The notes under the pieces: generated by a model
Database searches by the model: none
What the model saw: the letters and a program-made list of their open reading frames with translations, nothing else
What the model was told of the DNA's origin: nothing
In this document: positions 1 to 658 of the stretch, piece after piece
How the letters are laid out: every line of letters begins with the position of its first letter
Numbering within the stretch: position 1 is the stretch's first letter
Sequence record: AY167110.1
DNA: 658 nucleotides
Source of the DNA: a phage
Direction: 5' to 3' (one strand)
Translations under genes and position numbers: made by a program

Positions 1-198
1 AAGGACTATGTTGATGGAGCAATAAATATTGTTACAACAAATGCAAACTCTAGAGTATTACGCTCTGGAGACACTATGACAGGAAATTTAACTGCGCCAA
101 ACCTTTTTTCACAGAATCCTGCATCTCAACCCTCGCATGTTCCGCGATTTGACCAAATCGTAATTAAGGATTCTGTTCAAGATTTCGGCTATTATTAA
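1..198 (+). CDS. 36: 3' end (5'-partial) of a T4 gp36-like long tail fibre protein (distal half-fibre hinge/connector subunit); C-terminal 65 aa, stop TAA at 196-198
   Basis: Frame 1 is open from base 1 to TAA 196-198 and translates to KDYVDGAINIVTTNANSRVLRSGDTMTGNLTAPNLFSQNPASQPSHVPRFDQIVIKDSVQDFGYY. It ends 8 nt before the gp37-like start codon, the conserved 36-37 gene order of T4-like phages. The C-terminal sequence resembles my recollection of the T4 gp36 C-terminus (not verifiable here). Absent from the ORF track, presumably because it is a short edge-truncated ORF. Confidence 0.75.
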   Translation, partial: KDYVDGAINIVTTNANSRVLRSGDTMTGNLTAPNLFSQNPASQPSHVPRFDQIVIKDSVQDFGYY

Positions 199-203
199 GA
201 GGA
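199..203 (+). promoter_or_regulatory. Shine-Dalgarno-like ribosome binding site (GAGGA) for the downstream gp37-like ORF, immediately after and partly overlapping the gene 36 stop (TAAGAGGA)
   Basis: Purine-rich GAGGA at 199-203, 3-4 nt upstream of ATG 207. The spacing is short but within the usable range and the motif sits directly on the upstream stop codon, suggesting translational coupling. Confidence 0.55.
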
Positions 204-206
204 CTT

Positions 207-644
207 ATGGCTACTTTAAAACAAATACATTTTAAAAGAAGCAAAACGGCAGGTCAACGTCCAGCTGCTTCAGTATTAGCCGAAGGTGAATTGGCTATAA
301 ACTTAAAAGATCGTGTACTTTTTACTAAAGATGATCAAGGAAATATTATTGACTTAGGTTTTGCTAAAGGCGGTAGTATTGACGGGAATGTTATTCATAA
401 AGGCAATTATAACCAAACTGGTGATTATACTTTAAACGGTACATTCACCCAGACTGGTAATTTTAATTTAACTGGTATTGCTCGAGTAACTCGCGATATT
501 ATTGCCGCTGGGCAGATTATGACTGAAGGCGGAGAACTTATTACAAAAAGTTCAGGAACGGCACACGTTCGTTTTCATGATTCCGCCGACCGTGAACGCG
601 GTATTATTTTTTCTCCTGCTAATGACGGGTTAACTACACAGTAG
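207..644 (+). CDS. 37: N-terminal region of a T4 gp37-like long tail fibre distal subunit; the ORF as read ends at an in-frame TAG after 145 codons, far shorter than full-length homologs
   Basis: ATG at 207 preceded by an SD. Translation begins MATLKQIHFKRSKTAGQRPAASVLAEGELAINLKDRVLFTKDDQGNIIDLGFAKGG, near-identical to the T-even gp37 N-terminus as I recall it. Downstream come Thr-Gly/Asn-Gly-rich motifs typical of fibre shafts. Position directly downstream of a gp36-like gene. Stop TAG at 642-644 verified by manual translation; the 3' boundary is uncertain biologically (see findings). Confidence 0.8.
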   Translation: MATLKQIHFKRSKTAGQRPAASVLAEGELAINLKDRVLFTKDDQGNIIDLGFAKGGSIDGNVIHKGNYNQTGDYTLNGTFTQTGNFNLTGIARVTRDIIAAGQIMTEGGELITKSSGTAHVRFHDSADRERGIIFSPANDGLTTQ

Positions 645-658
645 TTACATCAGAGTTC

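Follow-up and report, generated by a model that had tools for sequence, protein, structure and literature searches.

The closest described counterpart of the locus analyzed here is gene 37 (g37) of the T4-like coliphage AR1 (Tequatrovirus ar1), which is available both as an older record of the tail fibre locus (AF208841) and as part of the complete genome (AP011113). In T4 biology, gp37 forms the distal half-fibre and is required for adsorption. In both AR1 records g37 is an uninterrupted reading frame of 1103 codons, and a Pfam search assigns to the full-length AR1 product a Gp34_trimer-like domain and a C-terminal Peptidase_S74 chaperone domain at residues 993–1052. The gene lies directly downstream of g36 in the g34–g38 fibre cluster, and this layout is the same in AR1, SH7 and RB51; the gene order in the matching relatives is g36, g37 (1103 aa), then g38 (adhesin) and t (holin). 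Two further systems serve for comparison. Tail-fibre amber mutants are plentiful in T-even genetics, as is generally known, and amber mutations are substitutions by definition; a locus with an in-frame TAG early in g37 resembles these T4-type mutants. The other is the end of a Sanger read. A sequence of about 650 nt with errors heaping up at its 3′ end has the look of the tail of a single Sanger read, and hairpins cause bases to be dropped by compression in gels and capillaries, classic compressions usually being GC-rich.

Sequence record AY167110.1, the whole 658-nt stretch of which was analyzed and is called the window hereafter, consists of the 3′ end of g36 and the start of g37, which encodes the distal subunit of the long tail fibre, of T4-like coliphage AR1. 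A megablast search of 50,697 phage records has returned 671 matching records, nearly all of them from Tequatrovirus-type coliphages and Shigella phages. AF208841, entitled 'Bacteriophage AR1 distal tail fiber locus', matches best, with 99.4% identity over the full 658 nt, and the AR1 complete genome, AP011113, is 98.9% identical over the full length of the window. The record shares with AR1 the g36 stop, the 8-nt g36–g37 spacer and the g37 start, and it is laid out as follows.

1–198, plus strand: 3′ end of g36 (hinge connector, or small distal tail-fibre subunit), 65 codons followed by TAA at 196–198; the relatives annotate g36 here.
197–203, plus strand: Shine-Dalgarno-like AAGAGGA at the g36–g37 spacer, 4 nt upstream of the ATG at 207.
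207–641, plus strand: codons 1–145 of g37, its N-terminal part, in window frame 3; the relatives annotate a g37 of 1103 aa here.

The AAGAGGA at 197–203 is unchanged in all aligned relatives and, judged from its letters and position, may act as a Shine-Dalgarno sequence for g37. Matches to the T4 late-promoter motif TATAAATA in the window all carry one mismatch and occur at chance frequency. The reading frame that begins with the ATG at 207 ends with a TAG at 642–644 after 145 codons, the last residues being NDGLTTQ, and the window itself ends at what corresponds to codon 151 of g37. The first-pass annotation, which was made from the letters of the window and described this frame as a gp37-like tail fibre gene cut short at 145 codons by an in-frame amber codon, was right about the frame and its end: the product of ORF 207–644 is 99.3% identical to residues 1–145 of AR1 gp37, and the conserved gp37 N-terminus MATLKQIQFKRSK is present in it with one private change. 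Its remark that the region resembles the shaft of T4 gp37 was also correct in kind, since the stop lies within a conserved gp37 motif. Neither the 145-aa N-terminal piece nor the g36 tail is assigned to a Pfam family.

An alignment of the record with both AR1 records, SH7 and RB51 (alignment A1) has shown how the stop comes into the frame. The features at the site are the following.

639–641, plus strand: first missing base, one of the doublet at 640; the relatives have ACA CAA/CAG GTA and the record has ACA CAG TA.
642–644, plus strand: TAG; in the relatives these are bases 2 and 3 of Val146 (GTA) and base 1 of Val147 (GTT), out of frame.
646–648, plus strand: second missing base, one A of the doublet at 647; the relatives have GTT AAC and the record has GTT AC.
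649–658, plus strand: codons 149–151 of g37 (ATC AGA GTT, IRV) and 1 nt, in window frame 1, the translation of which ends with SSYIRV.

All 40 relatives listed are 2 nt longer than the record over the aligned stretch (660 versus 658 nt, or 654 versus 652 nt), and alignment A1 places the difference in two separate 1-nt gaps, at 640 and at 647. The record is identical to the relatives over the 7 nt that separate the gaps and over the 11 nt that follow the second one. A single 2-nt deletion was considered instead of two 1-nt deletions and was set aside, since only with separate gaps do the intervening 7 nt align without a mismatch. The relatives thus read ACT ACA CAA/CAG GTA GTT AAC ATC AGA GTT, which is translated as TTQVVNIRV, and the record reads ACT ACA CAG TAG TTA CAT CAG AGT TC. 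The site is ACACAGTAGTTACATC in the record and CAAGTAGTTAAC in its intact form without the deletions; when both bases are restored, the record continues as NDGLTTQVVNIRV, the same as in AR1.

T642, A643 and G644 are all the same as the corresponding bases of the relatives, so that there is no substitution in the TAG, and the TAG stands in frame because one base has been lost at 640. The TAG is a product of a frameshift and not a changed codon. The first-pass annotation had offered, as one explanation, a classic conditional-lethal change of CAG, AAG, TGG or TAC to TAG and had proposed to find the sense codon that occupies 642–644 in the homologs; there is no single sense codon that has been changed, the homologous codons being CAA or CAG, GTA and GTT. 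An amber nonsense substitution in g37, with the phage maintained on a suppressor host, would account for a TAG that is in frame with the g37 start and takes the place of codon 146. However, none of the three TAG bases (0/3) differs from the relatives, the frame having been changed by a 1-nt deletion, and the frame past the TAG is not that of gp37. It reads LHQS, that is, four codons and 2 nt to the end of the record, where gp37 has VNIRV. The earlier statement that the same frame stays open to the end of the window is therefore true as far as it goes, but so short a stretch is uninformative and is not gp37.

The frames beyond the window were compared by extending the record, from the shared ACATCAGAGTTC onward, with AR1 sequence. 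With AR1 downstream, stops are reached after 9 codons in the TAG frame and after 38 in frame 2, whereas frame 1 remains open for 957 codons as gp37. This is in agreement with the alignment, in which the second 1-nt deletion, at 647, puts the homologous gp37 reading into window frame 1. The expectation that a downstream extension would keep the frame of the stop open with gp37-like similarity thus fails for that frame. Since the gp37 frame is lost downstream of the TAG, the protein is beyond rescue by a suppressor tRNA, and in this respect, as well as in the origin of its TAG from a frameshift, the record differs from the T4-type amber mutants. At the sequence level (alignment A1) the amber-mutant reading is refuted, and we regard it as extremely unlikely.

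The changes at the site are private to the record. When the last 59 nt of the record were used as a query, 172 phage records matched, none of which was at least 99% identical (0/172); the best was 95.1% identical, and each of the matches listed spans 61 nt. In contrast, the 61-nt AR1 version of the site is at least 99% identical in 23 phage records. AR1 gp37 residues 101–200, a 100-aa stretch with the site at its centre, have been used as a query and match 258 phage records, every one of which covers at least 80% of the query and reads through the site; for all 30 of the 258 that were listed, the tblastn match crosses the site in a single piece. The closest relatives, which are 97–99% identical, have one ORF of 1103 codons. 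None of the 13 loci fetched, whose identity goes down to about 53%, has a stop at or near the site, and the motif QV(V/I)NIRVQDY is kept there down to about 62% identity; the site is therefore internal to a conserved segment rather than placed at a domain boundary. No assembly searched contains the truncated 145-aa product. An exact-pattern scan of viral contigs with 27–29-mers has found neither the record version nor the consensus version of the site, and a gapped pattern that covers both versions has no match in metagenome contigs or in genome contigs; as these collections contain the site in neither form, the scans are uninformative, and the phage records serve as the informative control.

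These comparisons bear on the suggestion, also made in the first-pass annotation, that the fibre gene is genuinely split or truncated, in which case a short N-terminal piece would have a natural end at the TAG and would be followed by a separately initiated gene. T-even tail-fibre loci are generally known to be mosaic and variable in gene organization, which lends such an arrangement some plausibility. The 258 of 258 records that read through the site, the single 1103-codon ORF of the closest relatives and the position of the site within a conserved motif all speak against it, as does the 14-nt stretch after the TAG, which contains neither a start codon nor a ribosome-binding site. A natural gene end or a split gene here has an almost negligible probability.

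Each of the missing bases comes from a doublet, and each is located in the loop or the 3′ arm of an inverted repeat. About 52% of the positions are in runs of at least two identical bases, and so the location of both deletions in doublets is by itself weak evidence. The repeat in the coding sequence of AR1 g37 has a perfect 8-bp stem, formed by TTAACTAC/GTAGTTAA, and a loop of 4 nt, at 633–640 and 645–652 of the AF208841 locus (L001:633-640/645-652). The same repeat sequence is present in the AR1 genome record and in RB51, and SH7 has one loop base different (alignment A1). What is left of it in the record is the following.

631–647, no strand assigned: remnant inverted repeat with a 7-bp stem and a 3-nt loop, identified in DNA folds; the relatives have TTAACTAC-ACAA-GTAGTTAA.

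The hairpin of the relatives, folded as DNA, has a free energy of −5.2 kcal/mol (z = −2.9), and the hairpin is weaker in the record than in the relatives. Its only relevance here is as a likely compression site. In comparison with typical compression sites, it is AT-rich and weaker, and so the hairpin, like the doublets, is consistent with a sequencing error but does not decide for it.

The overlap of a small hairpin with the site also brings programmed recoding to mind, in the form of ribosomal frameshifting or bypassing across 640–647, and the translational bypass of T4 gene 60 is a generally known precedent. In the relatives, however, the gene is colinear in one frame and needs no recoding, and in the record the ribosome would have to shift twice in succession within 7 nt. 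In the record, moreover, the hairpin is weaker than in the relatives, and an Rfam search at E ≤ 1 has returned no match. Folding of 600–658 as RNA has given a structure no better than those of shuffled sequences (z = −0.22), and so the fold makes no case for a recoding structure. The probability of programmed recoding at this site is negligible.

The two deletions are not the only private differences of the record. It differs from AF208841 in four such places, the deletions at 640 and 647 and two substitutions.

230, plus strand: A to T, which changes codon 8 from CAA (Gln) to CAT (His), Q8H; CAA is found in 19 of 19 fetched loci, distant ones included.
629, plus strand: T to G, a synonymous change of GGT to GGG (alignment A1); it opens the group of three discrepancies in the last 30 nt.

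Three of the four private differences fall within the last 30 of the 658 nt, which has a binomial probability of 3.7e-4 under a model of uniformly distributed changes. The substitution at 230 sits within the conserved N-terminus of gp37, a long way from the end of the read; either a genuine SNP or a further error may account for it.

The distribution of these differences also bears on whether the frameshifts are real. Two genuine −1 frameshifts in the DNA, whether of a defective laboratory mutant or of a non-viable molecule from PCR or cloning, would give a truncated gp37 of 145 aa. The deletions are present in the sequence as given, and short runs and hairpins are also places where polymerases tend to slip, either in vivo or in PCR. 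However, a phage with such a gene could not propagate unaided, because gp37 is needed for adsorption, and the two −1 events, 7 nt apart, are uncompensated, with a net change of −2. The third private change, at 629, lies 11 nt upstream of the first deletion, and the crowding of all three into the final 30 nt of the record is more readily explained by read quality than by mutation. In addition, both other AR1 records are intact and the changes are shared by 0/172 records. Real frameshifts of this kind are thus quite unlikely. We consider it very unlikely that both deletions belong to an AR1-like frameshift mutant, in which a third, compensating −1 shift just past the window might rewrite a few residues of QVVNIRVQDY, or which would otherwise be a defective variant without the fibre. 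If the change were real after all, it would amount simply to a defective fibre mutant.

The stop is very probably a base-calling error at the end of a read of about 650 nt, the gene itself being intact, a reading that the first-pass annotation had listed as a sequencing or assembly error without choosing it and that the evidence favours. The record has much in common with Sanger reads that deteriorate toward the end or contain compressions: its length of about 650 nt, errors in the last 30 nt, collapsed doublets and a hairpin at the site. The discrepancies are private to the record, clustered at its end, and break the conserved ORF of an essential gene, as is expected of a read-end artefact, and we infer that they arose in sequencing and not in the phage. 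A plausible course of events is as follows. The record would be the product of a single sequencing pass, about 650 nt in length, across the g36–g37 junction of AR1 or of a nearly identical isolate, probably read from the same primer end in g36 as AF208841. Base calling may have worsened over the last 30 nt, where the T at 629 would have been called as G, and two doublets, at 640 and 647, may each have been called as a single base in the loop and in the 3′ arm of the hairpin. The first dropped base would move the gp37 frame by one step, and the out-of-frame TAG within GTA GTT (Val-Val) would then act as a stop; with the loss of the second base the frame would shift again. The phage gene would be intact and would encode the usual gp37 of 1103 aa.

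The premature amber codon is not a biological feature, and AR1-type gp37 is already well described. Where the gene is essential and conserved, a stop in the last few bases of a short record calls for caution and for an alignment with close relatives before anything else.

At the other end of the record, bases 1–40 are identical only to those of AF208841 among 621 phage records, and the record differs from AP011113 at three sites within the first 20 nt. A 5′ end that is shared with AF208841 and differs from AP011113 suggests that positions 1–20 of the window, and the same stretch in AF208841, are derived from a primer and are not phage sequence. If so, the record may represent a PCR product that was read once from that primer. 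Just past the end of the window, at codon 151 of g37, AF208841 has CGA (Arg151; L001:661-663), where CAA (Gln151) is the codon in the AR1 genome and in every other close relative, so that the older AR1 record, too, differs from the later genome sequence.

The metagenomic viral contig IMGVR_UViG_3300030021_000021 (L005) also has a premature stop in its g37, a close homologue whose product is 91% identical to gp37 of AR1. By way of contrast, it displays the form that a true nonsense substitution in g37 takes, and this is the form the first-pass annotation had expected of the record. Here g37 starts at L005:493, and the in-frame stop is an ochre codon at L005:1678-1680. The pattern differs from that of the record, where it has no counterpart: a single T-to-A change converts TTA (Leu396), which is the codon in AR1, SH7, RB51 and a further locus (L007), to TAA, and the same frame continues beyond it with homology for about 300 more codons, the 91% identity extending to the end of the locus. 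A genuine nonsense variant, a minority allele and an assembly error are all possible origins of the ochre codon.
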